Below are positions 12,896-60,200 of a stretch of DNA of 64,000 nt, in pieces. Where the stretch lies: the IMG/VR virus record IMGVR_UViG_3300005573_000001, one strand, 5' to 3'. This DNA is from a virus. The stretch's first letter is position 1. Every line of letters starts with the position of its first letter. Under the pieces are notes generated by a model that did no database searches, was not told the origin of the DNA, and saw only the letters and a list, made by a program, of their open reading frames with translations. A program made the position numbers and the translations under genes.

Positions 12896-12917
12896 CAGCG
12901 TTGGGAGGGATAGCACA

Positions 12918-13004: not shown

Positions 13005-13020
13005 CCTATCCATAACCAAT

Positions 13021-13043: not shown

Positions 13044-13050
13044 CCTAATC

Positions 13051-13087: not shown

Positions 13088-13175
13088 TCCTTGGATTTTT
13101 AGTAGACAAATTGCCAAAATCCCGGTATTTATATATATGAGAGGGAAATTAAAGGGCATACTATGTGACTAACGT

Positions 13176-13856: not shown

Positions 13857-14073
13857 CGAAGTGGCACTAGGTGCAATCGAAGACTTAAATCTCTTTACCG
13901 TAGGTAAGTCTATAGAGCGTGTCCTATTCGACGGCGAGGCGGAACAAATCACAGGATACAACATCATCTTCTCTGATGGAAGCGCCCTGCTACAGATAGT
14001 CCATAACGGCCAACTCTACTGGAAATGCGCGACAAAGGAAGAAATGGACGAATTTCTGAGTAGTGGTCAATAA
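13840..14073 (+). CDS. Hypothetical protein
   Basis: 77 aa; coupled to both neighbours. Confidence 0.6.
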   Translation: MQIKNDEVALGAIEDLNLFTVGKSIERVLFDGEAEQITGYNIIFSDGSALLQIVHNGQLYWKCATKEEMDEFLSSGQ

Positions 14074-15200: not shown

Positions 15201-15211
15201 GGAGCGATAGA

Positions 15212-15835: not shown

Positions 15836-15847
15836 GGGGTGTAGACT

Positions 15848-16174
15848 ATGGGACTCACAAGACGTGGCGCAGTAATGAGAACGCTTTTCCGTCAGGAAGA
15901 GGCGTCAATAAATAACTTATTTACTGGCGTTAGACTAAGAGGCGTCTGGAGCAAAACTATGGTAGTTGGCGGGTTGCTTCTTGGCGGACTCATGAGTATG
16001 AAGGAAAACTATATAAATACTCCTCGTAATAGTAATGTAGTCAACTATGGAAATTTACCTATGCTAAGTTACGACGCGGTACCAAATAGAAGCCGCCTTA
16101 CTGGCAGCAGAGATTTGGGCGCGACTGGAGAGATAGTCTTCGGACTTAATAGCGCGAGGAGAGGTGGTCTGTAA
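15848..16174 (+). CDS. Hypothetical protein with a hydrophobic segment
   Basis: MVVGGLLLGGLM; SD GGGGGTG. Confidence 0.7.
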   Translation: MGLTRRGAVMRTLFRQEEASINNLFTGVRLRGVWSKTMVVGGLLLGGLMSMKENYINTPRNSNVVNYGNLPMLSYDAVPNRSRLTGSRDLGATGEIVFGLNSARRGGL

Positions 16175-16668
16175 TGTCTGCACTAGGTGACACTATTAGG
16201 GCCGGAGAGGCCAAAGAAGCGGCAAAGGATGTTACAGGTAAGTTAACTAAAGAAGTCCTAAAGAGTCATAATTTCGGAAAGAATTTACTTGTTACAAGTG
16301 TCCTTAGTACTGTAGGCAATCTTATAGAAGGAGAAAGCCCAGGACGCGCCATAGCACAAGGTGCATTAGCAGGTATTAAGTTTGGCGTAATAGGAGCAGT
16401 ACTGCCAGGTTTCTTCGGAACACAGATAGCTTTTCAAGTAGGCAAAGCTCTCGGTGGCTTATACTTCTCTTTGAACCGTAGGGGCAGGGAACTGCGTACC
16501 ATACGGCAAGACAAGAATAACTTCAACTGGAATTTCGTCGATACTGAGCAGGCTTATACTATGAGGCAAGCAGCAGTACAGGCAATACAGGCAAGCAAAT
16601 TAAACGCCAGGTCTGCACTAGGTGGGGAGGCACGGCTGATGCACCTTGGCATACCTGGAAGGTGGTAA
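16174..16668 (+). CDS. Gly-rich hydrophobic hypothetical protein
   Basis: Coupled (TAATG) to the upstream gene and to the terminase. Confidence 0.7.
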   Translation: MSALGDTIRAGEAKEAAKDVTGKLTKEVLKSHNFGKNLLVTSVLSTVGNLIEGESPGRAIAQGALAGIKFGVIGAVLPGFFGTQIAFQVGKALGGLYFSLNRRGRELRTIRQDKNNFNWNFVDTEQAYTMRQAAVQAIQASKLNARSALGGEARLMHLGIPGRW

Positions 16669-40234: not shown

Positions 40235-43200
40235 ATGAACAAGTATCAGGCATACTTGAACAGGGAATACCTGAATACACGAGCACGGGCCACCCGTCAG
40301 CGCCATAACAGAGAAGAATCAAGAGAGAGATTTGCCAACATAGTTGGCAGTCTAGCTACCGCAGCCGGGATAATCGGCGGCGTCTACTTAGTGCGCTCTG
40401 GAAAGCTTGGAGACCTGCTTGGTGGCACACTAGGAGAAGGGCTCTCTCGTAATATAGGCAGTGTCAAGCGCGGGGTGGCAGCCGTCGACTCTGCAATACA
40501 GGCCATCAGTGCCGGCATTAGGGAGCGGGGACTTCTTAAATTTCTCGGTGGCGAAAGCACAGAGTATATAACAAAGAAGTTTGGCCGCATCTATGCAGGA
40601 ACGCTGCGTAAAACAAGTACCGCGCTCTCCGGCACAAGCACTATGATAGAAAACATGGCCAAGAGCTTCGAGCGCATAAGTAGTAGTGCGGAAAAGTCTA
40701 TTATATCCCATGCACGCCTGAATACTATTATAGACAGCGTAGAGAAGCAATTCGGCTCCGAGGTCGGGGCATCGTTCAAGGCGAGTGCTCTGGGTGCGCT
40801 ACAGTCAAGCAAGAACCAAGGGCTCTTTGATACACAAAGCCCCGAACAGTTACTCAAGAAGATAAAGTTAGACAAGAGGATTAGCGCTGAGCAACAGAAG
40901 CAAATCTTTGAACATATACAAGGGTTATACAATAGCGGAGCTCTTAGCGACGGGAACCTTATGAGCCCTGCCAGCGTTAAGGAGCAGGCTGAAAAATTCC
41001 GCCAAGCTATACTGAAGGGTGCCATAGAGACACTAACCCCCAAGAAAGAAAGTATCATGGCTAGGTCTATTCTGGCAAGTGGGGGCAGATACGCAACAGC
41101 CAAGGACATCATAGATAATCCCGACCTAATCCTCAATGAGTCGAGGTTTTTCGGCGTAAGGGAACGGGGTATTAGTAGGGCTAAGGAGTCAATCAAGACG
41201 GGACAGTCGGCGTCTAAGCTAGTCCATGAACAGGTGAGAAGGTTCATCGACGAGATGGTGGCTAACGGTGCGGACCCAAGTAAGATTATAATAGACCCTG
41301 GGGTGCTTATAAATAAGGCCGGAGAAGTAGTAGATATACGCGGACTACAAGATGTGTCCCGCCGCGCCATAAGTTATCTAAGTAATAAGTTTGCTATACC
41401 TTTCGTCAACATAAACCCACTAAATCTGTTACACTTCAATGCACAGGAAGCTGCCCGCGAGGCCCCTATGATGACCGAGCTCTTTCGTGGCGAGTTTCAG
41501 CCCGTAATTACCGGCACGCGCACAAGAATGGAAGAGACACTAGTTCGCGTCGGCAGTAAATTATACAACTATTCTGGCGAAGTAGTATCTAAGATACAAG
41601 GAGGCTACCTTACTTCTAATAGATATGGTACTCAGAAGGAAATTCTAGAGGCCATGGCTGCTGTTGGGGAGACACCAAACCAGGGAATATTACAGGAAGT
41701 CTTGGATATAGGCGGCCAAAGGAGAACATCGGAAATTAGACGGGCTATAGGGTTTTTCAGGAAATTCAACGACCCCGACTGGTTGCCAAATAAGTTACGC
41801 GACATAGAGGATGAATATAAGGTATGGAAAGGTACTAAGGGGGCAGAGTTTCCAAACAGGCGACCTAACGAGGCCATAAGACAACTCTATAGCATATTCA
41901 ATCGCCATGCAGATACGCTAGATACGGATACAATAGAGAGCCTGTCAGGCAAATTAATGGATGTCTTTAAGGGTGTCGGATTCACACCCGAAGACTTTAT
42001 GATGGAGACAGAAGAGGATGTTATGCTTACTCTAAGTAAGTATATATCCAGCAATTATGTCAACCATAACAACCTTATTGATAGACAACTTATTGCGGCT
42101 GCTAAACAGTTTAGGGAGAACCCAGAGGCATTCTTTAAGACAAAGGAAGCTGTCTACAGTCAGGGACCTCCGTTCAATGCCGCAGAGAACCTGCAGTTCA
42201 AAGGCACGTTTCTGCGCACAAAGGTTGGCCGCGTAAAGAGGCAACTACAGCAGCAGTTTTTACAGAAGCTAGCCGATTCGGGTAACTTGCAAGAGTCCGC
42301 ATTAGAAAGCCTTGACGCGTTGCAGCAGCATAAGGTAAATGACCTTCTCACCCTGAACTGGCTCAACGGCTTGCAGTATGACATAAAGAATAATACAGGC
42401 AGACAGGCTGAGAAGATATTCGCAGACGTATGGGCGAATCCCGAGAGCGAAATAAGGTATGCTAAGAATTATACAGAATCAATAAGGCGTAATGTCCGCA
42501 AGTACAACTCGCGTTTCAGTAGTTGGGTCCTTCCGCAGACAGAGACCAGCGAGTTTGGAGACCAACCGTATCTATGGGTTAACAAAGCCGTAAATCCATT
42601 CAAGGCAACCCTCGAGGCTATAAACGAATCCCTCACGAGCGGGAAGAATATGCTTGACGCCATTAAGGAGGCTACAGCAGGCACGTTTTCCCAATTCTTC
42701 GCAGGCCGCAAGAATTTACGCGACGTGACTACGGCGACAATGTTCCCATATTACTTTATGTACCGCCTCAACACTGGGATAAGCACGGTAGGACTAGGGC
42801 TGTCAGAGCATAATATGGGAAGCGCACAGCAAATATTCGCCAACTTACTCGCCAGGCGTTACGGTGCTACCATGCTAGCTCTAGGACTAGCCTCGTATCT
42901 AGCCTATGAAATTGGCAATGCTACTGGTAAGAAACCACAGGATGTCGCGGCCGGTGCTTACGTAAATATGACGCTTGGCATGGCCAAGGTCAAGGACATT
43001 TTCGGTATTACAAACCTCTCTAAGTGGACGTCCAACCTATTTCCAGGATCAGAGCGTCTATGGCAGAACCCAATCGGGGCCGCCATAAAGTACGGCACAT
43101 TCGGGTTAATAGGTGACGACCGGAGCATGGAAGAACTCAAGCGCTATTACCAGAAAGGAAGCGACCCTATTCGAAGTGGCCGTTGGTGGGGCATCGGGTC

Positions 43201-46200
43201 TACGACAGAGTTCCGCGGCTGCCTCACTCCAGAGTCCAAGATACAATGTAGGGGCGGTATGGTAAGCGCAAAAGACATCCGGTTTGGAGATCTGGTACTA
43301 ACGAAGGATGGAACATACCACCCGATAACTGCCATAATTCCAAGAGACACCGCAGAAACAATCTATAAGGTTACTACTATACTGGATGATAGCGAAACAG
43401 TATGGCTTACCGGCAATCATCAAGTACTTGCCATACACACCGGCCATACGCCAGAATGGGTGCCTGTAGAGAATATTACACTTAACGACTATATGTTGTA
43501 CCCCATACCAAAGGGAAACAACGACAGCGATACAATATCCATTGGTGGCACGGTGCTTACCGTTAACAAGTCGCTAGGTAGATTAGTCGGGCTATATACC
43601 GTCACAGGACACTGTGAAACAGGTACGGCCAGCATCTTTAAAAGCCTGGTACCTGGAGAGAATCAACAAAGCAGACACTTGTCCAATACTATAATGGATT
43701 TGTCAAACCTGGACTTCTGGCTTGGCTTTATCGAGGCATTTGAAACAACGAGTATCGAAGTCGCGAACTATCGGCTAGCTAAACAAATACAACATATTCT
43801 TCTAAGGCTCTATATCGTCGCGTCAATATCAACGTCGAATAATGCATACAGAATAGATTATAGTAGCAATAATGGGCTTTATAAGTGGGCAGACGACGAT
43901 ACGCTGGCTGTCGCTATCAAGTCTATAGGGACCGCCTATTACAAGGGGGTAGTGTATGACTTCTCGGTAGATACAGAGCCAAGCTTTGTATCATCCGGTT
44001 ACATTATGCACAACTCAAAGATCTCATACTTTGCGCCAAACTGGTACCGTCGCATGAAGTCAGATTACATGATGACGGACGTAGGGTACGGATCAGAGAG
44101 TGAGTATTGGGCTAACAACTGGCTCCCAACGCCGCGTAACCCGCTTGGACCAATCAAGACAATGATACTTGACCCAAACCATTGGCAGCGTAAACACCTA
44201 AAGGATAGGCCAGCAGCTGTTATAGGCGGAGTCCAAGAATTGCAACAGATACCCCTTGTGGGGCCATTGCTTGACACTACAATCGGTCGAGTCTTAAATC
44301 CACGCAGGCTGCGTGCAGGGTATGCCAGGGCCCACAGGCAATATATCAATAGGATTAACGAAGAGATAAAGGCACGCTACGAACAAGAGAGTCAAGGTGG
44401 GTACTACGAAGTACAGCCAGGTGGCGGCCTAGTTCCTGTCGCAGTCCCCGACGTAATAGAAGCCGGAGACGAGGACATAGTTCCCGCAACAGGCTTAAGG
44501 CCTGGTTACTACGGACGCAACGTGTCAGTTAGTGGTATCCATATCACCGACGAAGTAGCGGACAGCAGGCGGCGCGGGATGGGATATGGTGCAGCCCTAT
44601 CAACCTCAGAACTAAGCGACATCAACGCTAGCTTCACCGCAGGGTCTCGCGTAATACCTATTAGTCCTGCTGCAATGCTCAACTCCATTATGTCTAATGA
44701 AGACTATATGGACGCTTTCCTGCCGACTACTAATCCAAGCAGCGTTTCATACCGGCTTGGCGAAGCTAAGTATAGCCTGACTGAGTTAGCCGGCTTATAT
44801 GGATTCACATTTAATATGTTGTTCGGCGGGGAGGGAGCTGCCTCTGGACCCGTCTTACAGTATGGCGGGGATGCATGGAGCATACAAAGAGCCTTCTGGG
44901 ATATGGGGCTTGGAGGATTCCCGGGAGAACTATCAGAGATAGGACGTAGGTTCATACCGAAGAAACGTACGGAGAGACAGTGGAGTCCGTTCAGGAATAC
45001 GATGCCAGAATGGCTGCCTATGGAGTTTCAATATGGAGACCCCTTTACTAAGATAGCACGTGGAGAAGCGAGACTACCCGGCAGCGGATACGAAAGCCTT
45101 AACCAGCTCCATCCAGATATGTTCGGCGAATATGGAGCAATCGACAGATTTAAGATACTCGCCGATATAGCTCCATACTCGGAACAATACAAATATTACA
45201 GCAAGATACTTACCCTATACAACCAAGCCGGGCTGCTTTCTGACGAAGAAAAGGAAGACATACGGGAAATCAAGCATCAGGTCCATCAGCAGAAACAACG
45301 CTATGACATGACGCCGTATAAGTTTCTATATGCTCACACGCAAAGACATAAGGTCAAGATTAAAGAGGTTATTGATGACATTACGTTCATAGCGGAAGGG
45401 TATGCTCATCCAATGAGATTGGCTGGCATAACCATGCCGCCACAATCGGATACCAGTCCCGGAGCACAAGAGGCAAGAGAATACCTCAGGTCGGTTATTC
45501 GTGGCGGCGCAACCATATGGATAGAAACCGACGCAGACCCGCTCTTCGCTGTCCGCGGCGACGTGATGCAGACTATGAGGGTAGCAGTCTTCGACCAGCA
45601 CGGCGAATCTGTATCCAGTAAGTTGGCACGTACCAAATGGGGCGGCCAGAAGGGCGTAGTCAAGGCTGATTACAAAGATACGAGAGCGACTACAGTACGT
45701 GCGTTATATAGCAAGGGCGAGATAACGGTAGGTAAGGTTTGGGAGCTGTTAGTACACCGTAATAACCCATTCAACAATAAGTTTATGCAGGTACGTAGTC
45801 CATACGAACAATACGTTCGAAGGATGGTATACGGCAAAGACTTTAGAACGTGGCAACACCCAATTAAGGGATTCATACAACCTATTATAGACACCAACGC
45901 GATGCGCAACCCAATACTGGCTACGGCAGTGGGTGCACTCGGAGGATCTCTATTCGGAAGGCGCGGGCAAACCGGGGCCAAACTAATAGGGGCCATTATC
46001 GGCGGCGCTATTATGGGCGGGGCCTCATCTCTACGCGCAATTAACGAGACATGGAATAGAATAACCAAGAGATCCGACTATACGTGGATACCGAAACGCC
46101 GCAGACTAGAACGTGAAATCAACGAATACTTTGATAGACTAACATATATAAAGTATAAGGGCCTATACGAGCGAGCCAGAGAATTGGCTCGCAAGGAAGA

Positions 46201-47035
46201 AGGCGTAGACGTAGAAGAACTAGCCAAGTCTGCTCGAGGCGGCAAGGCAATCAGCAAGCGCAGGAGAAAGGCGTTAGAAGCGCGTAAACGTTGGGTATAT
46301 ACCAATATGGCAAACCCGCTAAACGATCCAGACGTCTGCAAGGCGGAGCTTCAGGCAATAAACGAGGAACTTGGAGAAGTCAGCGGAGACACCGCTAAGA
46401 AGTTATATAGGCTTGGGCCTCTTACTATGAAAGCGCTCGAATTCAAGGGTATATACGAATCCACCCTATATGGCGCGACACCTAGCGGAGACTTACAGAA
46501 GATAATAAGGGCCCTCCCAAAAACAGAGCGTGACTTCTTCTCCGGTTTCCTAACGTCGCCTCCAGAAGAACGAGAGAAAATACTACGAGTAGTTCCTCAG
46601 AACGAACGTAGGTTCCTGCAGGCAATGTGGGGTCTAAAGCCAGACAAGGTGAAGTCAAACGAAGAGTATTTCATGTACCACAACTTGCCGGGACCCCTAT
46701 GGGAGGGCTGGAAGCCAGACGTCTCACTCGAGGCTATCAAGCTAAATACAGCCAAGGCAATGGGCTTGGACGTATCAGACCTAGGCTTTTACCCAAGCGA
46801 TGTCAGCGAGGCTAGAGGAGCTGGGAAGGTTTACACTGGCAAGGGGCTAAACTGGTTCAGCTTCGGCAAGCTACACGGGGTCCTTAAGGGCCTTGGACTA
46901 AAGAAGATAGACATCAAATCTTACCTCGGAAATACGCCGCTTTACGATACACAGGTAGATATAGAGGTCGAGTATGACCGTAAGAACGATATAATTAAGT
47001 CAATGAATGATAACTATAGATCCCTGTTCAGGTAG
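40235..47035 (+). CDS. Tape-measure-like giant protein with an intein and a degenerate thermonuclease-like domain
   Basis: Follows the chaperones; 2266 aa, helical with several hydrophobic Gly/Ala segments. Confidence 0.7.
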   Translation: MNKYQAYLNREYLNTRARATRQRHNREESRERFANIVGSLATAAGIIGGVYLVRSGKLGDLLGGTLGEGLSRNIGSVKRGVAAVDSAIQAISAGIRERGLLKFLGGESTEYITKKFGRIYAGTLRKTSTALSGTSTMIENMAKSFERISSSAEKSIISHARLNTIIDSVEKQFGSEVGASFKASALGALQSSKNQGLFDTQSPEQLLKKIKLDKRISAEQQKQIFEHIQGLYNSGALSDGNLMSPASVKEQAEKFRQAILKGAIETLTPKKESIMARSILASGGRYATAKDIIDNPDLILNESRFFGVRERGISRAKESIKTGQSASKLVHEQVRRFIDEMVANGADPSKIIIDPGVLINKAGEVVDIRGLQDVSRRAISYLSNKFAIPFVNINPLNLLHFNAQEAAREAPMMTELFRGEFQPVITGTRTRMEETLVRVGSKLYNYSGEVVSKIQGGYLTSNRYGTQKEILEAMAAVGETPNQGILQEVLDIGGQRRTSEIRRAIGFFRKFNDPDWLPNKLRDIEDEYKVWKGTKGAEFPNRRPNEAIRQLYSIFNRHADTLDTDTIESLSGKLMDVFKGVGFTPEDFMMETEEDVMLTLSKYISSNYVNHNNLIDRQLIAAAKQFRENPEAFFKTKEAVYSQGPPFNAAENLQFKGTFLRTKVGRVKRQLQQQFLQKLADSGNLQESALESLDALQQHKVNDLLTLNWLNGLQYDIKNNTGRQAEKIFADVWANPESEIRYAKNYTESIRRNVRKYNSRFSSWVLPQTETSEFGDQPYLWVNKAVNPFKATLEAINESLTSGKNMLDAIKEATAGTFSQFFAGRKNLRDVTTATMFPYYFMYRLNTGISTVGLGLSEHNMGSAQQIFANLLARRYGATMLALGLASYLAYEIGNATGKKPQDVAAGAYVNMTLGMAKVKDIFGITNLSKWTSNLFPGSERLWQNPIGAAIKYGTFGLIGDDRSMEELKRYYQKGSDPIRSGRWWGIGSTTEFRGCLTPESKIQCRGGMVSAKDIRFGDLVLTKDGTYHPITAIIPRDTAETIYKVTTILDDSETVWLTGNHQVLAIHTGHTPEWVPVENITLNDYMLYPIPKGNNDSDTISIGGTVLTVNKSLGRLVGLYTVTGHCETGTASIFKSLVPGENQQSRHLSNTIMDLSNLDFWLGFIEAFETTSIEVANYRLAKQIQHILLRLYIVASISTSNNAYRIDYSSNNGLYKWADDDTLAVAIKSIGTAYYKGVVYDFSVDTEPSFVSSGYIMHNSKISYFAPNWYRRMKSDYMMTDVGYGSESEYWANNWLPTPRNPLGPIKTMILDPNHWQRKHLKDRPAAVIGGVQELQQIPLVGPLLDTTIGRVLNPRRLRAGYARAHRQYINRINEEIKARYEQESQGGYYEVQPGGGLVPVAVPDVIEAGDEDIVPATGLRPGYYGRNVSVSGIHITDEVADSRRRGMGYGAALSTSELSDINASFTAGSRVIPISPAAMLNSIMSNEDYMDAFLPTTNPSSVSYRLGEAKYSLTELAGLYGFTFNMLFGGEGAASGPVLQYGGDAWSIQRAFWDMGLGGFPGELSEIGRRFIPKKRTERQWSPFRNTMPEWLPMEFQYGDPFTKIARGEARLPGSGYESLNQLHPDMFGEYGAIDRFKILADIAPYSEQYKYYSKILTLYNQAGLLSDEEKEDIREIKHQVHQQKQRYDMTPYKFLYAHTQRHKVKIKEVIDDITFIAEGYAHPMRLAGITMPPQSDTSPGAQEAREYLRSVIRGGATIWIETDADPLFAVRGDVMQTMRVAVFDQHGESVSSKLARTKWGGQKGVVKADYKDTRATTVRALYSKGEITVGKVWELLVHRNNPFNNKFMQVRSPYEQYVRRMVYGKDFRTWQHPIKGFIQPIIDTNAMRNPILATAVGALGGSLFGRRGQTGAKLIGAIIGGAIMGGASSLRAINETWNRITKRSDYTWIPKRRRLEREINEYFDRLTYIKYKGLYERARELARKEEGVDVEELAKSARGGKAISKRRRKALEARKRWVYTNMANPLNDPDVCKAELQAINEELGEVSGDTAKKLYRLGPLTMKALEFKGIYESTLYGATPSGDLQKIIRALPKTERDFFSGFLTSPPEEREKILRVVPQNERRFLQAMWGLKPDKVKSNEEYFMYHNLPGPLWEGWKPDVSLEAIKLNTAKAMGLDVSDLGFYPSDVSEARGAGKVYTGKGLNWFSFGKLHGVLKGLGLKKIDIKSYLGNTPLYDTQVDIEVEYDRKNDIIKSMNDNYRSLFR
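43220..44014 (+). mobile_element. Intein (265 aa) in the tape-measure-like protein
   Basis: Starts CLTPESKI; TGNH block B; ends VYDFSV..SF..IMHN followed by Ser. Confidence 0.92.
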
Positions 47036-47042: not shown

Positions 47043-50000
47043 ATGGCAGATAATAGACTCGACAAGATTAAGATACATGGGATTACGTATGTAAGGTCAG
47101 ACAAGCTAAGAACGATAGCTGTAACGCCCAAAGCAGCGCCCTTCAGCGATATACAAGAGAATAAGGTAGATGAGGTTTTCAGCAAGCTGCAAGCTGCAGA
47201 CAAGAACGCAGCCATGTTAAATTCGCCTATGCATCAAATTAATGCTAACGTAGACTTTGGGCGACCTGATATAACGTATCGGAATTACTGCAACATCTAT
47301 GAGAACGGCGGCCAAGTATTCGCGTTCGACATCGAGGGCAACAACACTATTATTGGCGGCATAAAGCAATTTGGTGTAACAGAGATTGGTATACATGGAT
47401 ATAAGGTCCCAGCTAAGGCTATGCGTCAGTCTGAGTCAATAACAAAGAGTAGTAGCTGGAATGCGGCAGTCAGGCTTTCGTCGCCACAGGCGGCATACTA
47501 CAAGAAACTACTGGATAGCGGGGACTTTGCTAGCTTATCTGAAGGAGACGCATGGGCCATATCCACCTTGGCTTCGTATAGCGGTGCCAAGTTTGGACCT
47601 GATGGCAGTATCGTCTCTAAAGGTCCGATACGCGTTTCTCCCAGACACGTAAGGGAATGGCTAGAATCAAGCGCATCTAACGTCAGAGCTGCCCGTGCTG
47701 GCTTAGAGGCGCTTCAGAGACATGGCTTGCCATTAAGTCAGGCTGCCGCACAGGTAAACAAGTATATAGCCGATAATACGCTACCAGGAATGCCAGTATT
47801 CTCGCTTGGGCAGGGCAGCAGGGGGTTTGACCTTCCGATACTACAGCGCGCAGGATTTAATTTACCGACCGATCATATAGACATGTTGGAGCTTATGACG
47901 CAGTCAAAGGAAGCTCCAGAGATACTACGTGGCGCTGCGGACCACATAGTTATGAACTATAGCTTGTCGTCATATGCTAAATCGGTTCTTGGACATGAAG
48001 AAACACACTCGGCTGCCGCAGACGCGGAACTAGTCGGTACCCTGTTTGAGAGAAGTATCTATAAAACAGACAGGCTTAGTCTTGGAAAGAAGAAACCAAT
48101 CAGACAGATGTTCGCAAACCCAGTAGGGGCAGCCATCGAGGCCGATAAGCTATACGCACTGCGCAGCGCATCGACATCCGACGGCAAGGTCCTCTTCGGC
48201 GGTGTCTGGGAGAATGTCAGTAAAAGTAAGAATGGCGAAATCAAGTGGCGACTTAATAAGTATAATACATACCCTGTTAGTAAATATAGTATGTATAGTG
48301 CCTATACATACGATATGCCTGTAAGCGCCATACCTAAAGATATGGCCAGTAAACTAGCCGAGGAACATGGAATTGCGTCTGACGAAACGTTGAAAGTATT
48401 AAAGCTTACTGAACACGGCGGCGACTACGTGTCGCGAATGGTGTTTAGGAACCAAGATGACTTGGAGGGGTTTATACAGCACACCTTTGGACGCCCACCA
48501 AAGAATGGGGCCGCGACAGTAGAGCGACAGGCCCACATGATAGACCAAGCACGTAGACAGTATATCAATACATGGAGCGATGTCGCCAAGTTTACGAAGT
48601 ATACTAAGGCCAGTCAGATACTCAAAAAATACGTAGATACTATGAGTGCGGCTGGAGAAAGATATAGTATACCGACGTTCAATACGATCGACGAGATGGT
48701 GTCTTACTGGAACGACGTCGTAAAGAAAGTTGGCGGCAAAAATCCTCTGAACACAAGGTCTCAAATCAGGGACTTTATCATGCTAGGAGATAGGTATGTA
48801 TCTGAAGCAATGGTTAGAGGGGAGCTTCTCAACGAGCTTCCAACCCTTGAGGACTCATACAGCAAACAGGTAGCGGTACGCCGGCTGTATCACGAACTAA
48901 AGTCGGCTGGCGCACTGCCAAAACCAACTGGAGTTCCATACGCGTCCAAGGCATTTATCCTTAATGTAGACGAGGAGCTTGGAGAGCAGTATTATACCGT
49001 GCTTAATCGCTGGAACAAGCGTGACTTAATACGAGGAATAAACAACGCCATCTATGGTTCAGGTGCAAAGAACATCGGAGCTGTAAATCGAAGAGCTAGA
49101 CTAATCGTTCAAGAACTTGCAGATAGAGGAGTCGTTGACCAGTCTGTAGCTAAAACGTTGCTTGACATGACTACAGGTAGAGGTATCGTAACGCCAACAT
49201 ATATATCCAGCAAATTAGCTTATGCAATCCAACATGGTCCCAGCCAAGATATGCCTAATGGCGAAATCCCTGAAACAATAATGGGGATACCAGTAAGGGG
49301 CACAGTAGAGGACGTACGCAGCAGAATCCGCACAAGAGCTGCCAACGGCGCAGTAGAAAGGGCATTATCCTTTACAAGGCAATTCACCTCCGGTCCCGCC
49401 TCAGGTACAGGTAAACTTACACCAGAAGGTGAGGCAATACTCGAGAAGTATCAGAGTAGGGTTACCAAGAGGCTTAAAGAGAGTCTCGGGGTTACCGGTA
49501 ATATCGGAGAAATAGTAAAGACTAAGACTGGAGCTCGTATCATGATCTCGGTTCCTAATATGAAGGACGAGGTCAATAAGCTCATGGAAAACTGGGGAAG
49601 ACACGGCTTCAGTACTACGCTATCATATGATAGGACGTCCAACACGCTATTAGTTGCCGCGCAACGAAAGAGCATACAAGGCGCTACAGATATAGCGGAG
49701 ACGATCTCTAGCGGAAAGGTCGTTAGGTTTGCCATACCCTTAAGTCATGCCGAGGGATACTATACGATAGGCGGAACACGTAGAATGGCTCCTTTCTTCC
49801 TAAAGGAGGCCAAAGGCACAACACATCGGTTCACGGACATGTCCGTAGAGCTTACACGAAGGTATGCAAACTACGCTAGACTTGTCGCAGAAAAACTAGA
49901 GAGCGGCGCTAGCTATACTGAAGTTAATAATATGATACAGTCACTTCCAGGCAAGATGTTTATGGAAATGACAAACTTGGACTCCGACCTTAAGACTACA

Positions 50001-53000
50001 ATCAGTAGAAGCGGCGACTGGATGAGAACTAAGGCCATCTTCTTCGGCGATGTGAGCTCTTTTGGCAAGCCATGGAAAGACATCGGTTGGGACAAGAAGA
50101 TGGCAGCCAGGGAGCTTAGCGAGATGATGTGGAAAACCTACGGCATAACAACAGTTCCGTTCCGCGAGTCAGGGGCCGGACACAGTATGGGTATTCTCTA
50201 TGACCTTGTCAAACATACAAGGATTGGGCAAGAGCACATGACGCTCTATAGTCCCACTTTCTGGCAGACTGCCAACATCCTGAATGCCGGCGAGTTCAGA
50301 GTCAAGGGTGGGTATACCACTATAGAGGAGGCAATAAAAAACAACGAAAATATATTATTAGAGAAAAGCGGCAAGCTTGGCGAATATGAGCGCCCGCTCC
50401 TAACAGCATTCGAGCAAAAGCAGGAGCGTACCGGTAGCGCCAAAAGGTTTATGCTTAAGACGGTATACATGGAAGACGCTATGCTTCACGAGCTTGGATT
50501 AAAGGAAAGCGTATATAAGGGTAATATAATCGTCGACAAAGACGTAGCAAAGATTTTAGTGGCTACCGGCCATACGAAGAAGTATAAGATTCCATGGGAA
50601 AACTTAGACCCGGAAATACAGGCCAGGTTAGCTACAGAAGAATACAGCGGGTCAAGGTTCTTAGAGTTAAGCCCTAAAAGAAATGGCGGATACGTATATA
50701 ATGGCAATAGAATGGTCACGGTTGGCAAGGTGGCATCAGAAAGCATCGCGTCCAACATCTCAGACCCGACAAACTATAGACCGATAACTCATAAGCTCTC
50801 AGGAGACGTATATACACACATCGAATACGACAAGCGTACGCAGACGTTAATGCTTAGGACCATATACGACACAAGTACCGCCAGCAAACTGTTTGCGGGA
50901 TCTGATAAGGTCATGCCAACATTCGTAGACATGAACCCAATCATATTGCGGGCACGGGAGAAATTTGGTATAGACCTCACCGGTGTAAGGGCTATCACCT
51001 CCGCTTCAGAAATAACCAAGAAAGGAGCATGGGATACGCCCGTCGCATCATGGATGCTTTATGGTATAAAGAGCGGGGTAGACAGAGGTATAGAACTACC
51101 AGAAATACAGAAGTCACTAAGGACGCACTTTGGACTCAAGACAACAATCGACTCACGCGGCAGACTCATCAGTAGAGGGTACGACTTTAGGCTTGCCAGT
51201 AAATTCGAATCAGACGAAGCAAGGTGGGCAAACTGGTTTAAGAGCATGGGCATGAGCATGGACGATGCTCTGCTCAAGACCACAAGCGGGAACGAGCTCT
51301 TTATGGGATACACAGAATTCGGTATGAGCGACGTGTTCCGCTATATGCGCGCCTATGGGAAAACTCTCGACGAGGCTAACAAAGGCATATACTTCGGTAA
51401 ACGTGAACTAGACGCACTTAGGAAATTAAAATCAGATATTACAGACAACATAAGCTATCGTGGTGCCGAACAGACAATAGCATACATCCAAGGTGAAATC
51501 CAAAGAAGTCCCGAATTTCGCAACGTTAAGCCATCTCAGTGGGGTTCATTGTGGTACTCTCCATTAGAAAGTCTATATAAACAAGACCCAACTGTATCTA
51601 TAGTTACAGATACGATGACCGGTGAGGAAATCGGAAAGAGAATACTGCGCAGCGGTCGTGTCTTCAATAAGAAGGGCGGACCAGAAACCTTAGTATATAG
51701 CAGGGGGTCTTACATTCCAAACCTGCCGGAAGGCGTAAGGGCAATACCGGTAAGTGAGTTACACTCTATAGAGGGTACACTTAATATGGGGGAACCAATT
51801 CGGACACACGTAGGTGACGCAGTGTCAGATATTGGTAGAGTCATCAAGGGTACCGTCTACGACCCGCGGCTCGCCGGCAAAAGCGGAGGATGGCACTTAG
51901 AGCTACCGTTCCCGGTAACAGTCGGGGATGAAATGGTACGAAAGACAGTATCAACTATGTATATGATAGGAGCTCAGGAGGTAAGGGGTCGGATATTCAA
52001 CAACGACGCACTAAGAATAGCAGATGCCCTTGTCGGAGCCATCAATACCTTCCAGAACCCCGAAGCGGCGGCAAGTGAAGTGACAAGAGCCAGAGAGAGG
52101 ATCCCGCAATTAGTCAACCAGTATTACGGAGAGGTTTGGCGTCAGATATTCAGCAAGGATAGCAAGCTGTATGAAGAGTTCCTCGGTGGATATGTAGGTA
52201 GGTCTGCAATACTCACTCCTAAAACAGAAAACGTCCTAAGCAACCTTGCCGAGAGCAACACGGTAAAAATCTCAAGACAGGCTGCGGCGACAATGCTTGA
52301 AGGCATAAGTCAGGCAGACCAAATTATGAGGGAGATGGAACATGGCGAAGGAATACCAAGTTTAATGGGCAGGGAGCCGATATTTCATAGGGGTGCCCAA
52401 AGTTATGTCAGAACCAAGATAGACCCTAACATTGAGAAGAACGTAATCATGCTGACAGTCGGACAGGAATATATAGCACAGGCAGATAACGATGGCGACC
52501 CGATAAGACTGAAGCTGCTACTCGGACGCAATCCTGACAAGTATATAGAGAACCTTCATACAGCAAGGGAATGTGTCGATAGGCTCCTTGCTACTAACCC
52601 GAGTCAAGCGGAGTTCAACAAGCGGCTGCAACAGGAACTGTACAGGTACCGCAATAATGCAGATATGCCCCTCATAATAGAATCCATACTCAAGGAGCGC
52701 GCCGCCAAGAGAAACACAGATGCCGTTACGCTACTAATAGCCGGCGAAGAAACATCTAAGGTATCTACTAATATGCTTAAGAAGGCTCGGGAGCAGAAAG
52801 AACAATGGGACTATATTAAGTCAGCCAGGTCTAATAAGACACCCGAGATGCGGCAATTAGAGATGATGATTGCCAGCGAACAGAATATGGCCAAGGAGCT
52901 CTACATCGGTCGCATGAGTAACATTAACCTTAGGATAAAGACCTTTGTAGACTACGTTAACGAGTATGGTTCCGACGCTATAACGGTAGGCAAGTATGTA

Positions 53001-54260
53001 AAGAACACATTAGGACTAGCGACAGCAAGCGCCTCAATAGATAGTTACAGCAACGTATTTAAGGCCCTTAGCGACACTGCCTCCACTCAAGCGGAGCTCC
53101 TGTACGACGCAGCCAGTAAAATCGGCGGAGGTATGGAGAGCAACGTTGTTACAGACCTTAATAAGAAAATCATGCAACACCTTGGAGAGGGAACTACTCA
53201 AGAGGAAGTCCGCAGACTATACGACAAGCTAGGCAGTCTATTCGATGCATATCAGAGTGGCGGATGGAAAGAGGGCAACAGGCTACGTCAAGAGTTCCTA
53301 AAGTTGACCCCAGAGCGTGCGCTGTCCATCGATATGCAGTCTATAACACTCAACGGGCAAATCGACGACATCAGGAACAGACTGGTTGACGTATACGGTG
53401 CTGGCAACAGAGACGAAATAGAGAGCACCATTAAGAAGTTCTTCAGTATTAGTGGTTCTAATATGACGCTCGGCGACTATATTGACTATATAGATAAACA
53501 ATACAGCACCATAGAAAGTAGTATGAGCGCGCTTGGCGATAGCATGAAGCAGGTCTTTGGACAGCATATGCCGTTTATGCATGGTAGAGAAAGCGCAACC
53601 GGTACTACCGCGCTCATCGCCGCAGCACAGATGGAAGGCAATATGCCTGTTGTAATGTCCCCCACAGACTTCCGTAATCTACAAAGCTTTATAGGTAAAA
53701 GTAGTGAACACATAGCCGAAGTTGAGGAAACCTTAAGGTATAGGGCGAACATAGCAAGCGCAGCTATGAGGGAAGCAAGTACAGAGGCCAAGATAACCAA
53801 TGAAATTGTGTCAGACAGTGCACGGGTAATGGCTGATGACATACTAAAATCCAGACAGCGCAAAATTAACGTACCAGGCGGCAAACTGATTGGCGGCGTT
53901 ATGGCAGCCAGTCTTGCAGCTGCATTGTTTGCAGGAGAACCAGAAGAAAAGACAAGTGGTCAGGCACAAGCCGAAGACGTGCAAGGCACATACAAAGAAT
54001 TAGACCCTTCACTATTGCCGCCGTCCTCTCTAGGTACTGGTCCCACAGCAAGAATAACAACTAATACAGGGGTGTCACGCATACATATAAGCGTAAGCGA
54101 TCCCAAAGGCATAAGCCAGGCGCAGCTCAATCGAATCGTAGAACAGTACGTGAGGACCCCAAGGATATACAACTCACGTAAGGATAACTCTGCCAGGATC
54201 GACAGGCAGTGGACGGAAGATAAGATAAGAAAAGCTATGACCTATGGGTATACATTTTAA
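47043..54260 (+). CDS. Giant virion protein: DEDDh 3'-5' exonuclease domain plus single-chain two-barrel (beta/beta'-like) RNA polymerase
   Basis: Exonuclease D96/E98 (FDIEG), D263 (GFDLP), H322/D327 (HSAAAD). RNAP-like motifs in canonical order: SKLFAGSDKV, YFGKRELDAL, KLYEEFLGGYVGRSA, MGREPIFHR, QADNDGDPI. Confidence 0.8.
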   Translation: MADNRLDKIKIHGITYVRSDKLRTIAVTPKAAPFSDIQENKVDEVFSKLQAADKNAAMLNSPMHQINANVDFGRPDITYRNYCNIYENGGQVFAFDIEGNNTIIGGIKQFGVTEIGIHGYKVPAKAMRQSESITKSSSWNAAVRLSSPQAAYYKKLLDSGDFASLSEGDAWAISTLASYSGAKFGPDGSIVSKGPIRVSPRHVREWLESSASNVRAARAGLEALQRHGLPLSQAAAQVNKYIADNTLPGMPVFSLGQGSRGFDLPILQRAGFNLPTDHIDMLELMTQSKEAPEILRGAADHIVMNYSLSSYAKSVLGHEETHSAAADAELVGTLFERSIYKTDRLSLGKKKPIRQMFANPVGAAIEADKLYALRSASTSDGKVLFGGVWENVSKSKNGEIKWRLNKYNTYPVSKYSMYSAYTYDMPVSAIPKDMASKLAEEHGIASDETLKVLKLTEHGGDYVSRMVFRNQDDLEGFIQHTFGRPPKNGAATVERQAHMIDQARRQYINTWSDVAKFTKYTKASQILKKYVDTMSAAGERYSIPTFNTIDEMVSYWNDVVKKVGGKNPLNTRSQIRDFIMLGDRYVSEAMVRGELLNELPTLEDSYSKQVAVRRLYHELKSAGALPKPTGVPYASKAFILNVDEELGEQYYTVLNRWNKRDLIRGINNAIYGSGAKNIGAVNRRARLIVQELADRGVVDQSVAKTLLDMTTGRGIVTPTYISSKLAYAIQHGPSQDMPNGEIPETIMGIPVRGTVEDVRSRIRTRAANGAVERALSFTRQFTSGPASGTGKLTPEGEAILEKYQSRVTKRLKESLGVTGNIGEIVKTKTGARIMISVPNMKDEVNKLMENWGRHGFSTTLSYDRTSNTLLVAAQRKSIQGATDIAETISSGKVVRFAIPLSHAEGYYTIGGTRRMAPFFLKEAKGTTHRFTDMSVELTRRYANYARLVAEKLESGASYTEVNNMIQSLPGKMFMEMTNLDSDLKTTISRSGDWMRTKAIFFGDVSSFGKPWKDIGWDKKMAARELSEMMWKTYGITTVPFRESGAGHSMGILYDLVKHTRIGQEHMTLYSPTFWQTANILNAGEFRVKGGYTTIEEAIKNNENILLEKSGKLGEYERPLLTAFEQKQERTGSAKRFMLKTVYMEDAMLHELGLKESVYKGNIIVDKDVAKILVATGHTKKYKIPWENLDPEIQARLATEEYSGSRFLELSPKRNGGYVYNGNRMVTVGKVASESIASNISDPTNYRPITHKLSGDVYTHIEYDKRTQTLMLRTIYDTSTASKLFAGSDKVMPTFVDMNPIILRAREKFGIDLTGVRAITSASEITKKGAWDTPVASWMLYGIKSGVDRGIELPEIQKSLRTHFGLKTTIDSRGRLISRGYDFRLASKFESDEARWANWFKSMGMSMDDALLKTTSGNELFMGYTEFGMSDVFRYMRAYGKTLDEANKGIYFGKRELDALRKLKSDITDNISYRGAEQTIAYIQGEIQRSPEFRNVKPSQWGSLWYSPLESLYKQDPTVSIVTDTMTGEEIGKRILRSGRVFNKKGGPETLVYSRGSYIPNLPEGVRAIPVSELHSIEGTLNMGEPIRTHVGDAVSDIGRVIKGTVYDPRLAGKSGGWHLELPFPVTVGDEMVRKTVSTMYMIGAQEVRGRIFNNDALRIADALVGAINTFQNPEAAASEVTRARERIPQLVNQYYGEVWRQIFSKDSKLYEEFLGGYVGRSAILTPKTENVLSNLAESNTVKISRQAAATMLEGISQADQIMREMEHGEGIPSLMGREPIFHRGAQSYVRTKIDPNIEKNVIMLTVGQEYIAQADNDGDPIRLKLLLGRNPDKYIENLHTARECVDRLLATNPSQAEFNKRLQQELYRYRNNADMPLIIESILKERAAKRNTDAVTLLIAGEETSKVSTNMLKKAREQKEQWDYIKSARSNKTPEMRQLEMMIASEQNMAKELYIGRMSNINLRIKTFVDYVNEYGSDAITVGKYVKNTLGLATASASIDSYSNVFKALSDTASTQAELLYDAASKIGGGMESNVVTDLNKKIMQHLGEGTTQEEVRRLYDKLGSLFDAYQSGGWKEGNRLRQEFLKLTPERALSIDMQSITLNGQIDDIRNRLVDVYGAGNRDEIESTIKKFFSISGSNMTLGDYIDYIDKQYSTIESSMSALGDSMKQVFGQHMPFMHGRESATGTTALIAAAQMEGNMPVVMSPTDFRNLQSFIGKSSEHIAEVEETLRYRANIASAAMREASTEAKITNEIVSDSARVMADDILKSRQRKINVPGGKLIGGVMAASLAAALFAGEPEEKTSGQAQAEDVQGTYKELDPSLLPPSSLGTGPTARITTNTGVSRIHISVSDPKGISQAQLNRIVEQYVRTPRIYNSRKDNSARIDRQWTEDKIRKAMTYGYTF

Positions 54261-54272: not shown

Positions 54273-57200
54273 ATGTCAAACAGCGATAATGTACTAAGTC
54301 AGGCAGAATTCAGTAGTAGCGCAGTTAAGGCGTTTCAAAAAGCACATGCACAGGATAATATCAACTATCAATTTGAGATGTTTCCAGGAGGAATCAATCC
54401 CGATCCGTCTGGCACCAATGGCGTACGAATTACAACACCAGAGTGTCTGTACGGCAAGGTCGTAAAGGTATACGACGGCGATACCTTCGATATTGAATTG
54501 TACGCAGTAAGCGAAGGATTGCAACTCTGGATTAATGGTGGTTTGGAGGACCCGTTCCTGTATGACACCGCTAGTAACAAGCACATATACTATACAGTCC
54601 GGTTAGTTGGCATCGACTGCGCCGAGTTAAAGAGCACATCTAATAGTGAGGAGAAGAATAGAGAATATCTCTATTATCTTGGTATACGCGATACAACGGA
54701 TACCCTATCTCGCATGTACGATCTAGCCGAAGAAGCTAAGGCTGCTACTGCTAAGATGGTCCTAAACAAGATGGTAGTCGTCTGGCTAGAAAATGACGTT
54801 GCGGCACCACACCATGTAGACACACATGGGAGACTAGTCGGATGCGTATACGTACCGTTAACCAAGGGTAACAATGGTAGCTCAAAAGACTACCCAGAAT
54901 GGAATCAGATAGGTATCAATGTAAATACGACCTTGCTTGCCACTAAAACCAAGATATTTGAGCATGAGAACCCTGACACTCGTCTGGCAAAGATCTCTAT
55001 CTATTTGGATAGTAGCAATAACGAGCTCGTAAGCCGTTTTCCGATAGCAGCATGGGCTAACTTAGGCATGAAACCTGGAGAACAGCAGACTGATGAAGTC
55101 GATACAGAGCTTAACAGGATGATTGATAAGTGGCTCGAAGCTATAAGCGTCAGTGAACGTGGTGGGGTTTATATAGGGTCTGACGGAACCCTATGGGGGC
55201 ACAAAACAGAAGGAGACAACATCGTATGTAAGGAAATAATAGCTGGTGGTAAGGACGGCGTTACGTTTGGCACTAGAAGGTTTGTACAGGACGACATATG
55301 GGTTAATAATCTAAATCCAATACCAGCAGCCGAGGACGAGGCAGAACTATCGTCCAAAGGCTATAAATTAGACCTTCAGGACATACCTGGTATCAATCAA
55401 TATGGATATGTCGATACTCGCGTACGTATCGGAGACACAATCCTTACAGTTCCTCCTTTAGCAATCCGTGTGCGTAACGTAACACAGAGTACTAAGGTTA
55501 ATACGTTGCGTAATAATAGCTCGATGCAAACTCAGTCCGGTTACGTAAACACAGTAGTCGAAATGGAACTATTCTTTCACGACCTTGAGTCGATTAATGG
55601 CATCGAGATACCTAACCCATTCCAGAATGCCGACTTCACATTCAAGGATGGCGTACCACCGATATTAACGGAGAGATGGAAGAATCCCTACGCCATCAAT
55701 GGTCTGCGCAGTCTAATCGCCCAGTTTAAGAAGGCTCCATTCCTCCCTATATATTGTGAATACCTAGAGGATGCCCATGAAATCGGGGCGGTCGCACTAG
55801 AGTCAATCAACGTAAGTACAGTGCCAGGATTCCCGAACTGCCTAATGGCTACGCTAGTTATGACTGCGTTCGACTGGAACACATACTTAATAGATTGTGC
55901 CGACTTCGGAGACAAATTCAACTGGCCTATCTTCAGGTGGTATTACCAGCATTGTATGCAGCCAAGTAAGAACAATAAGGGGTACGACACCTTTACATAC
56001 CTTCCAGCCATCGGCAAAGACAATACTACTAGTGATAAGATCAGCTTCTATATAGCAGACGAAGGGGTCCTTGCGGCGCGTCTTTGGGCTATAAAGGAGA
56101 TGCGTAACTATATATCGCCTCTTGACTTTAAGGAACAGTCTAAGGACAAGACAGTAGCATTAGGACAAATGCAATACGACGGCATCACTATTAACAGTGC
56201 TATAGACCAAGCTAATAGGTTCAAACAATGGATAGCAGAGACTACAGACACGAACCGGCGCGGGAATGCACAGGTAGTGCCCGACTTTCGGTGCGCAGGA
56301 ATGTCGGCAAATGACCCACCGGTGCACCTACCAACCACCTATGGGCAAGTATATCATATTTTAACTGGGGGCGGCAAATATCCGTTCAATATGATGCCGC
56401 CATCAATTAATCGTGACGGCAATGTCGTATTCGAACAGTTTGCCGGCAGGTTGTGCGTCTCTACATACCTAGGATGTCCTGTTGAGAATTTCTATGACAT
56501 GTTCGGCAATCCGATCAACTTGTATAGCTATAACACCCGTCCCAGTCCATATCAGATATTCACTGGCCATTATGCAGACTACTTAAAGCATCTTGGAAAG
56601 AGCGCATGTGCGGAAGACGTAGCAAAGATGTTACCAGAAGCGGTCTGGGCTAAATACTTTACAGAAATGATGGAGTATGTGTATGGCAAGAATGCGACGG
56701 ACTACTACTTTGTCATTAACGGCATGTTGCCTACAAGGTTATATGATCTTACAGATACGGGGATAGCCATGGGCTATGCTCTCGACTCGGTGTTTAACAA
56801 TATAGCATTCATCAAGTTTGTAGGGATGAACAAGATACAACTACTATATGACTCAGCTAATTCTAAGATTACTGAAACCACTAGGAAGAATATTGACGAT
56901 AACCCTTATCTTCTAGCGCAAGGCGGCGGTATGATGTACATACCGCTCTATGCCGAGATTAACTCCGTCATTATAGAAGGGAGTAAGTACGTATTCATTG
57001 ACATACCCAGCAATGAGGAAAGCGCAGGGTGCGTACGTGTAGTCGCCGCAATACCGCTTGGAGACGACGTTATATGTGCCCAACTAAAGAGAGCAGCCAA
57101 ATACTACGACGAGTCTATCCAGGGATATAGTAACTTTATCAATTACATGAATAAATTCTATGAGAGTGACGAGTCGGATCTCCCAATGCTACTCGCTGTA

Positions 57201-60200
57201 ACTAACGACAAAACAAAGAGTAGCGACCCAAACTATAATACATACTTTATGGATGCAGAGGCGCTATCAGTAGACGTAACGCTCGAAAACGTATTCGCCA
57301 CACAGCAACTCCAAGAAATGCCATCGCCAACGATACAATACTTAGGCAGTCAAGACGGCTATATCAATATAGTCTATCAGACCAACAATATGAACGATGT
57401 CAAGGCGCTTCAAAGGTTATTTTCGACATCACAGCGTATAGCTCGGGACTACAGAATCGCAATTAGTTCAGCCTTCTTAGGCATCGAGAATAGCTTTATC
57501 AACATGATGGGCATAAACCATTGTCTAGTTGATAGGTTCGAGGTGTCAACGATAGCCGGATTTCCTGGCAGCTACAGCATTGCCCTTGCACTCGTCGCAT
57601 TCGACAAATCACAGAGGCGGCGCGAAGAACTTGCGAATATGCCGCTTGCGCCGGATATGGACGAAGATACCACTGTAATGGACTATAAGCTGCAGACTTC
57701 CACAGCAAAGAAGGAAATGTTGCAGAGGATGCAGGCATATAACCTTAAACCTAATAGCTCAAGCGACGACGTAATAAAGAGGATGCCGTTCCTAGGACTA
57801 TTTAGCTTCGTGTCACAGAATGACGACAAACTTAAGAGCGCTATATTCCAGTATAAGCTGCAGACGCAGGAAGTCTACCCAGACCTGGAGCTGCCGACGT
57901 GGGAGGAATTCGCATGCGCCATTCCATACTTGAACTGCGGAATAAAGAGTATAGAGGAGTATAATGATAAACTACAGACGTTTACGGAAGCACCTATAGC
58001 GCAGGCGCGCGGCAAATACGTCGACCCCGACTTCTACATTAAGTGTGACATCACATTCAGTATGGAGACGATAGGGGAGATGTTCGATAATAATACAAAG
58101 GCTATGTTGCTCAAGGATACCTATGGAGCTAGAGCAGCCGACATTGCGCCTGCAGTCAGCATAACTAACGCATTAGGACGTAGCGATGCGTCCGACGAGA
58201 TGCAAGTCCCATATGTATCCTTCAACGATCAGTTCGCATATATGGATTCTGTACAACGTGACGTAGCCGGCCAAATTCAAGCTATAGAAGAACAGAACAG
58301 GAAGGAAGCTTACAATATAGAGCCCGCATCGACCGTAACGGTAGCTATGTGGGCCAACATAGAGCAAGGTGGGTGTGAGTTTAATATGATAGACCCGACA
58401 CCCGACCAAAAGAATTCTGGAGATGAGACATACAGCGAAGACCTATCTATTAGGCCAGAAGGCGATGGCGGAATCCTGAAGCGCATGTTCTCCGACTCCA
58501 ACTTCAATGGCTTCACTAAGGAACCTGGCTTTAACAAGATATACGACAAGCTTCTCGACAGCGAGGTTAACGAGTTATACGCAAAGATACTTGAGGCCGA
58601 GGTTGACAAAACGGTCATTAAGGAACCTACAGACGACGAAGTGGACATCTTTATAGAGGGCATGGCGGCACAACTGTTCCGTACGGTATCCATAGTAGAA
58701 GACGACGGCAACTTAAGCCAGGTCGCTCTTACGCCTAGTACGTGGAAATTTAATCACACGGAATACACACTAAGAACTGGCAACGACGTAGCAAGCGGGT
58801 TCATCATAGAAAGTGCATCTGCTGCTAAAGGAAAGAACAGCTGGACATATGGACAAAGGACCGTTTCGGCACCCCAAATAACCGTACGTAAGGTAATCAA
58901 TGCGTTCAAGGCTATCCTAGATATTGGAAGTCAATGGGATCAATTCATGCAAAACCCCTACCTCGTGCGTAATCAGAAAACACATGTACCCAGAGTAAAA
59001 CTTTACGACGCAGAACACATCGTCACCTACGATGATGGTAGTATCAAAATAGGTATGGCCCAAGTCTGCACTAACTGGGACGTAATCGAAGACGAAGAGG
59101 ACATCGCCAGGCTGGCATGGGACTGGCAATTTAACGTATTCTGCGGATTCAAGAGGTTCATACAACTATTATACAAGAATGCTACTCATGGTAACCATTC
59201 GCATGAAGCATATGCTTGGCCGCTCGATTACGCTATGGCTCAGTACTGGGATATTGACAACGACCTGAATAGTAACATGTACATTCAGACACGCAACAAG
59301 ATGATTAGTAAGTATGGACAAAGGCGTGCTGCTATGGCCAACTTCAGCCATCTAGTTACACAGGGCGTTGCGCACCAAGTACAGGAAGAGTTAGCCATTA
59401 AGCTATATGAACACAACGGCGTAATAGGACAAAGTACAGTACATAATGGCATCTTACTACCCGAACTAAAGTATGCAGACAACTACGTCGGACGGTACAA
59501 CGAGGAAATAAACCTATCTGGAAGCGAATACAATGTAGACATCCAAGAGTGGAGTAAGTTACACGAGGCACTAATAATGGACCGTGCACAAATTGGTGCG
59601 CACATATTACCGCGACTCCCTGTCTTAGAAGTTGGATTCTCTACTAACACAAGCTCCCCCGAACACCTGTCTGTCCCATATATTAGCGCGTTTGCAAGGA
59701 TTGCAGTATTTCAGGCACTAAGCGACTACATCCATAAGGATACTAAGAGAGTAGAGGCAATACAAAATCTAACTAGTGCAATCAATAGCGTACATAGCCT
59801 TATTAGTGTAAGTGAAATTCCGCCCACCGAGAAGGAAAAGAGTATAAAAAAGGTAAGAGATGCTATATTAAACTTGTATAAAACCGATCCAACACTCTTT
59901 GCGTTGTTCATGTACGAGAGCGAAGCATTGCGCGGAGACTGGATTGTGCGCACAGGGAGCGGAGCAACCACAAGTTATATTACAGTACCAATGAGAAGGG
60001 CCGAAGACGGGACCTACAAGACAATATATATCCGGTATGGTATCAATATAAATCCAACTGTCTCACCGAACATGACAATTCCAGCAACGTATATGGGACA
60101 AGAAAATGTAGTAGAGAGCGACTTGGGACCCATAGACATATCGGCATGCAATTATAAGCCAGAGGACGACCAAGTAGTCTTTAAGTGCAGTGTCGACAGC

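Follow-up and report, generated by a model that had tools for sequence, protein, structure and literature searches.

Virion polymerases and DnaQ-like exonucleases

One of the closest described systems is gp96 of Thermus phage P23-45, a 5002-aa siphophage protein in which a virion two-barrel RNA polymerase (RNAP), placed N-terminally, is fused to the tape measure (PMC10770324). The protein described here resembles gp96 as a single-chain two-barrel RNAP within a giant tail-module protein, with a DxDxD motif, and in its proposed injection and pre-early transcription. Unlike gp96, it is a myophage protein and carries about 1100 aa, including an exonuclease unit, ahead of the polymerase core. No sequence match between the two proteins was seen, and PMC10770324 and its 10 supplements mention neither a nuclease nor the phages considered below.

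A second reference point is gp146 of phage 0305phi8-36, annotated as a hypothetical tape measure, an assignment made mainly from its length (PMC2147016). The annotation of gp146 reports it in virions by mass spectrometry and includes neither a nuclease nor an accessory or polymerase domain. Gene position, the C-terminal module, and an intact DEDDh domain with its accessory module are common to gp146 and the present protein. The differences are that gp146 lacks DxDxD and carries its nuclease internally (aa ~1215-1700, with a large insertion), behind an unrelated 1200-aa N-terminus.

Among exonucleases, E. coli ExoI, TREX1/2, Plex9, and the exonuclease domains of PolC and DinG have the same RNase H fold and D-E-D-H-D site, and with ExoI and TREX the likeness extends to the ExoII spacing and possibly to an ExoI-like accessory domain. 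The present nuclease departs from known DnaQ-like DNases in its 85-aa insertion, its 9-20% identity to them, its fusion to an RNAP, and its location in a tail-operon gene. Archaeal PolD (DP1-DP2) also pairs a two-barrel polymerase with a 3'-5' exonuclease. However, DP1 is a separate Mre11-like subunit rather than a DEDD enzyme, and DP2 makes DNA, whereas the family examined here keeps RNAP-type motifs and has a nuclease that outlives the polymerase.

The initial annotation of this locus knew of no characterised two-barrel RNAP fused to a DEDDh exonuclease. The literature agrees with it, as no description of such a fusion was found in coverage that lay largely outside subscription journals. The fusion is real and conserved, and apparently undescribed in print. 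The additions made here are the recognition that nuclease and module form a unit, the persistence of this unit after polymerase loss, a DNase-leaning signature, and the exclusion of a role as missing epsilon subunit.

Genomic context of the fusion gene

The source is IMG/VR virus record IMGVR_UViG_3300005573_000001, from which 64,000 nt (the window) of a 174-kb metagenome contig were analysed. A 2405-codon open reading frame (ORF) lies in a tail operon, between an intein-bearing gp145-like gene and a hub gene:

40235..47035, + strand: upstream gp145-like virion protein, 2266 aa, containing an intein and preceded by two putative tail chaperones
47043..54260, + strand: 2405-aa ORF, predicted exonuclease, accessory module, single-chain two-barrel RNAP, and conserved C-terminal module; counterpart of 0305phi8-36 gp146
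53760..54257, + strand: C-terminal module, with a glycine/alanine-rich hydrophobic helix at aa 2279-2297, common to exonuclease-only relatives
54273..63074, + strand: downstream gp147-like baseplate hub protein, 2933 aa

Both flanking genes match the 0305phi8-36 group only, namely KLEB27-3, WH1, Edson, MTATph1, 0305phi8-36 and, weakly, ME3. In 0305phi8-36, the gene between these neighbours is gp146. Judged from sequence, the window protein is the counterpart of gp146 in a 0305phi8-36-like jumbo myophage, with the C-terminal module marking orthology. The 47043-54260 ORF occupies a tail-module position, and presence in virions is known, by annotation, for the RNAP-less relative gp146 only. As for the tail ruler, gp145, which adjoins the chaperones, is a candidate beside gp146; a library search gave no match to a tape-measure family. 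The idea of a duplicated tape measure is unsupported, the gp146 C-terminal profile giving no match to gp145-like proteins.

Inteins are present in the terminase large subunit (with LAGLIDADG; window 16662-19091) as well as in the gp145-like tail protein (40235-47035). The N-terminus of the hub protein (window 54594-54866) resembles a Staphylococcal nuclease (PF00565) at E 0.001, below the cut-off; if real, the adjoining virion gene would encode another nuclease.

The DEDDh exonuclease domain

The N-terminal part of the ORF contains the following elements:

47301..48077, + strand: putative DEDDh 3'-5' exonuclease domain, aa 87-345, from motifs, profile, and model
47328..47336, + strand: ExoI motif, D96 and E98, conserved in 99-100%
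47475..47726 (approximate), + strand: family-specific insertion of ~85 aa, mostly helical, inside the nuclease, with an invariant G220; pLDDT mostly 82-95
47814..47837, + strand: ExoII motif, D263 (nt 47829) and P265, with G258 for the usual Asn, which is present in 98% of homologs
48006..48023, + strand: ExoIII motif, H322 and D327, with an H-D spacing of 5 in 171 of 172
48096..48917, + strand: accessory module, aa ~352-625, made up of a beta-rich and a helical domain, the latter having a conserved D-x-A-R-R helix

The initial annotation had placed a DEDDh exonuclease at 47300-48050, which is correct to within 30 nt, and the six motifs it quoted are all in frame in the ORF. In order, the sites are D96/E98, E114, D263, D280, the YSLS segment at 306, and H322/D327; the H-x4-D spacing of ExoIII is of the DEDDh type. 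This motif set exceeds chance. A profile made from 109 homologs, with the window protein excluded, matches aa 87-342 at 87.3 bits, and controls comprising 200 shuffles and the reversed sequence stay at or below 0.3 bits.

The single window sequence had no match in Pfam, PHROGs, NCBIfam, or a PDB sequence search, and domain searches with it were equally empty by tblastn of phages and in protein clusters. The original domain call was therefore not a library look-up. An ESM Atlas feature match links the single sequence to a DnaQ-like cluster at 0.94, and PF00929 is recognised in 18 of 55 family members, with no match for the window sequence alone. Searched against the PDB, the family profile returns DEDD exonucleases only, with E-values from 1e-11 (best) to 1e-4. 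A single-sequence structural model (pLDDT 34) was unusable, and structures were compared with an alignment-based model of the domain (pLDDT 72). This model matches the S. aureus DinG exonuclease domain at Z 15.0 (rmsd 3.0, 172 residues), epsilon at Z 13.6, and DinG/RNase T/DnaQ-type exonucleases overall at Z 13-15.

Of the 164 homologs longer than 1500 aa, 163 keep the full set of D96, E98, D263, H322, and D327, at 11-27% identity to the window domain (about 20% overall). The ExoII Asn, kept in 98% of homologs, is replaced by Gly258 in the window protein, in that genome only. This Asn is a common substrate-binding residue and not a metal ligand, so DEDDh membership stands despite Gly258. Motifs, profile, and model together confirm aa 87-345 as a member of the DEDDh (DnaQ-like) 3'-5' exonuclease family with intact catalytic residues, and the window nuclease would presumably act as a metal-dependent 3'-5' enzyme.

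The putative two-barrel RNA polymerase core

Two elements define the C-terminal half:

50886..50909, + strand: basic pair K1282/K1289, candidate beta-type barrel residues, presumably equivalent to the beta lysines
52371..52499, + strand: beta-prime-type catalytic barrel, R1777-x-P1779 ... D1815-x-D1817-G-D1819, invariant throughout the 43 aligned rows

In the PDB, the polymerase profile finds beta-prime subunits, from phiKZ and AR9 as well as from bacteria and eukaryotes (best E 5e-4), and no matches to beta or DP2. PF00623 is found in 19 of 43 members, and the RxP...DxDxD pair is carried by 161 of the 164 long homologs, compared with 23 of 820 shuffles (2.8%). Support for the beta-side barrel comes from a conserved lysine and motif order: K1282 is kept in 27 of 31 aligned rows, and the second basic residue is K/R in the near clade and mostly Arg in homologs. 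At motif and profile level, the assignment of the C-terminal core as a putative single-chain two-barrel RNAP holds, and the N-terminal position of the nuclease relative to it, proposed from the single sequence, is upheld. In the chain, 1300-2100 residues separate the nuclease site from the polymerase site.

Three architectures at one gene position

Homologs were reached through neighbouring genes and through KLEB27-3 gp34. The samples comprise 49 loci from the upstream gene, 36 proteins from KLEB27-3 gp34, and a profile search of 1.84 billion representatives, which gave 176 clusters at 50% identity (E<=1e-30). The last sample was drawn with the nuclease module and therefore cannot show exonuclease-less polymerases, which come from the neighbour-based sample. 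One apparent case, homolog P0021, was rejected as exonuclease-less; its gene is split, in an assembly with many broken genes, and the nuclease lies in the ORF upstream.

Three architectures share the gene position, most homologs having the two-domain form. Nuclease and polymerase are fused in 160 of 164 long homologs, and cultured phages with both domains include KLEB27-3 (gp34), WH1 (gp95), and Edson (0920). A second form, seen in 0305phi8-36 gp146 and MTATph1 CDS27, has an intact nuclease, the accessory module, and the C-terminal module, and no DxDxD; a genome-wide search of these two phages found no polymerase of this kind elsewhere. The third form, in ME3 gp36 and six IMG/VR relatives, has DxDxD, and both the nuclease and the accessory module are absent. 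On the question raised at the outset, whether RNAP homologs retain the nuclease, some 160 related proteins keep the pairing, and the ME3-like sister clade has the polymerase motif but no nuclease. The ~270-aa accessory module is found wherever the nuclease is and absent where the nuclease is absent, and neither profile nor Atlas features gave it a usable match. As a new point of this analysis, the nuclease goes together with the 270-aa downstream module, not with the polymerase.

In quick, midpoint-rooted trees that use the neighbouring upstream gene as a proxy, a branch with 100% support sets the four polymerase-only forms of the reduced tree apart from the rest. The nuclease-only forms fall within the exonuclease+RNAP lineages, whose monophyly is rejected (p-AU 0.0023). 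The simplest history is that the polymerase came first, the nuclease unit was gained once, and one or two later losses removed the polymerase and left the nuclease in place. Because the nuclease was kept after polymerase loss, it may well have a polymerase-independent function, a suggestion drawn from two genomes, one with an insertion sequence (IS) in the gene. In that genome, MTATph1 (L004:15513-22869), an IS21-like pair, consisting of a transposase gene next to an ATPase-like one, interrupts the gp146 counterpart and parts the nuclease portion from the C-terminal module.

In 0305phi8-36 (L021:13129-20739), gp146 still measures 2537 aa after polymerase loss, by way of a 1200-aa N-terminal segment for which neither a homolog nor a Pfam match was found. 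Such length conservation would fit a ruler role. A YonO/RdRP-like polymerase (PF05183) is detectable only in the polymerase-less 0305phi8-36 among five genomes (L021, L004, L005, L009, and L008).

A widespread jumbo-phage lineage would have a virion polymerase with an integral nuclease that has gone unannotated under 'tape measure' or 'structural protein' labels. Natural variants exist in culture with both domains (KLEB27-3, WH1, Edson), with the nuclease only (0305phi8-36, MTATph1), and with the polymerase only (ME3). They give bench access to two questions, namely how injected enzymes act at phage DNA ends and whether a two-barrel RNAP is edited by an exonuclease.

DNA or RNA as substrate

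Among the best 60 of 61 profile matches, Plex9/TREX-like enzymes rank first (1e-11), followed by the PolC exonuclease (1e-9), ExoI (1e-8), and TREX2 and DinG (2e-6). DnaQ and PolB exonucleases also occur among these 60; RNase T appears far down (1.6e-4), and Orn, ERI, CAF1, and PARN do not appear among them at E<=0.01. Plex9.1 cuts single-stranded and double-stranded DNA (PMC10123124). The ExoII spacing N-x3-F/Y-D, as in ExoI and Plex9/TREX, is found in 158 of 172 sequences.

The structural comparison ties DNases with RNases, as DinG, REXO2, Orn, RNase T, Cap18, and 3'hExo all score Z 14-15. The alignment with ExoI covers 248 residues (6-421 of the model, 8-329 of ExoI; Z 13.3, rmsd 5.2), which is ~70 residues longer than for most other DEDDh chains and extends into the accessory module. 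The extension, part of which is modelled at low confidence (pLDDT <50 at residues 260-326 of the model), hints that the accessory module may include an ExoI-like accessory domain. From the sequence signature, DNA is considerably the likelier substrate compared with RNA.

Proposed role and alternatives

As a tentative best reading, for which we would not claim an even chance, the protein is an injected nuclease that processes the 3' ends of the incoming genome. It would be packaged in the virion and injected with the genome by a 0305phi8-36-like jumbo myophage. The N-terminal unit (DEDDh core, helical insertion, and 270-aa module) would be an active two-metal 3'-5' exonuclease working on DNA 3' ends during the first minutes of infection, most likely those of the incoming linear genome. 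The ends would be trimmed or resected, and the terminally repeated genome would then be circularised or passed to recombination. Meanwhile, the C-terminal two-barrel core would transcribe the earliest genes, the two activities being fused for co-delivery and not for editing of the polymerase's RNA.

Both injection and the genome-end target are conjectural steps, and the target is the weakest. Incoming 3' ends are proposed because nearly the whole lineage has the predicted DNase, which does not depend on the polymerase. The 0305phi8-36 genome has a 6479-bp terminal repeat, and resection could use this 6.5-kb repeat for circularisation. However, many DnaQ-family enzymes trim no more than a few unpaired bases, and repeat-mediated circularisation requires kilobases of resection. 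Further points count against the genome-end reading: RNAP loss is seen in only two genomes, the tree is that of a neighbour gene, the window enzyme is without the ExoII Asn, the ExoI extension is partly modelled at low confidence, and DNases tie structurally with RNases.

Polymerase independence fits equally a host-directed or counter-defence nuclease, which would destroy short 3'-ended host nucleic acids before phage gene expression. Proposed targets are retron or reverse-transcriptase single-stranded DNA, CRISPR prespacers, Argonaute guides, and linear oligonucleotide signals. The DNase-leaning signature, the structural tie with Cap18, Orn, and REXO2, and virion delivery, which fits the earliest stage, would also suit such a role. 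On the other hand, counter-defence genes are usually patchy in distribution, and this nuclease is kept near-universally in more than 160 diverse homologs, as a core function would be; few copies per virion are also to be expected. The idea, which the initial annotation had raised as degradation of defence nucleic acids, deserves some weight, unlikely though it is.

Mechanical coupling of the nuclease to the polymerase, either for transcript proofreading or rescue in place of Gre/TFIIS or for DNA resection that feeds the polymerase during genome entry, is an unlikely arrangement. If true, it would give the first two-barrel RNAP with its own in-chain 3'-5' exonuclease. Both forms of coupling had been suggested in the initial annotation, and both are weakened. 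In the first, the nuclease would remove backtracked or mismatched RNA 3' ends, or trim transcripts, for a stripped-down polymerase without access to host Gre. Fusion in 160 of 164 long homologs speaks for it, as does the structural tie of the RNases; RNase T accepts RNA as well as DNA, and the ExoN of coronaviruses offers a functional precedent, being an exonuclease that serves an RNA polymerase. Yet an intact nuclease persists after polymerase loss in two relatives, and the sister-clade polymerase runs without a nuclease. The profile signature is DNase-like, with no RNA-only DEDD enzymes among the best 60 of 61 matches, and 1300-2100 residues lie between the two sites. Transcript editing is, on this balance, rather doubtful.

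In the second form of coupling, the entering DNA end would be resected to give the polymerase a single-stranded template. The DNase-leaning signature agrees with this. Genes point outward at the left contig end of the window, as do those in the left copy of the 0305phi8-36 repeat, an orientation in which 3'-5' resection would leave the template strand. But the right end of the 0305phi8-36 genome has been proposed as the first to enter (PMC2147016), and the right-end copies of these genes point inward, so that 3'-5' resection there would, by our reading of the geometry, remove the template strand. The nuclease is also retained without the polymerase, and the contig end of the window is a tandem repeat that may be an assembly break. 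Template making is accordingly improbable.

A replication proofreader is very improbable, either as the missing epsilon for the phage DnaE or as partner of a DNA-making two-barrel core. DnaE is present in 16 of 16 IMG/VR records at least 90% complete, and a separate PF00929 gene in 1 of 33 records only; PMC4996933 describes PolD as a two-barrel core paired with a proofreader. Against this, all nine PHP metal ligands, the criterion for an active DnaE proofreader (PMC5636811), are intact in each of the 20 complete PHP domains of phage DnaE that were aligned, whether or not the gp146 nuclease is present, a count that leaves out eight DnaE loci without a PHP start, 0305phi8-36 among them. With the PHP proofreader site of the phage DnaE intact, the missing-epsilon role is rejected. 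As for a DNA-making core, the core keeps the three aspartates and the RNAP-invariant RxP arginine, its profile leads to beta-prime and not DP2, and the gene lies in a late tail operon. The genomes behind five of the sampled loci (L025, L032, L038, L042, and L044) each encode DnaE (Pol III alpha) twice, in separate genes, with the PHP site intact where alignable.

A catalytically idle relic or pure end-binding cap, which the missing ExoII Asn of the window copy might suggest, is hardly credible when 163 of 164 homologs retain all five catalytic residues even as identity drops to about 20%.

The left end of the window

No clear repeated promoter motif was found in window 1-17000. A perfect 21-nt tandem repeat of ~6 copies (window 1-125) occupies the extreme end of the contig and is followed by ~1.5 kb of hairpin-rich, largely non-coding DNA; the two together may represent a genome terminus, an origin region, or an assembly break. 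Near the same end, window 3399-4286 (- strand) encodes a two-domain DUF4326 and YpsA SLOG gene, and about five copies of a 13-20-nt motif, spaced by 33-66 nt, lie at window 4834-5031 within a 221-aa minus-strand ORF.
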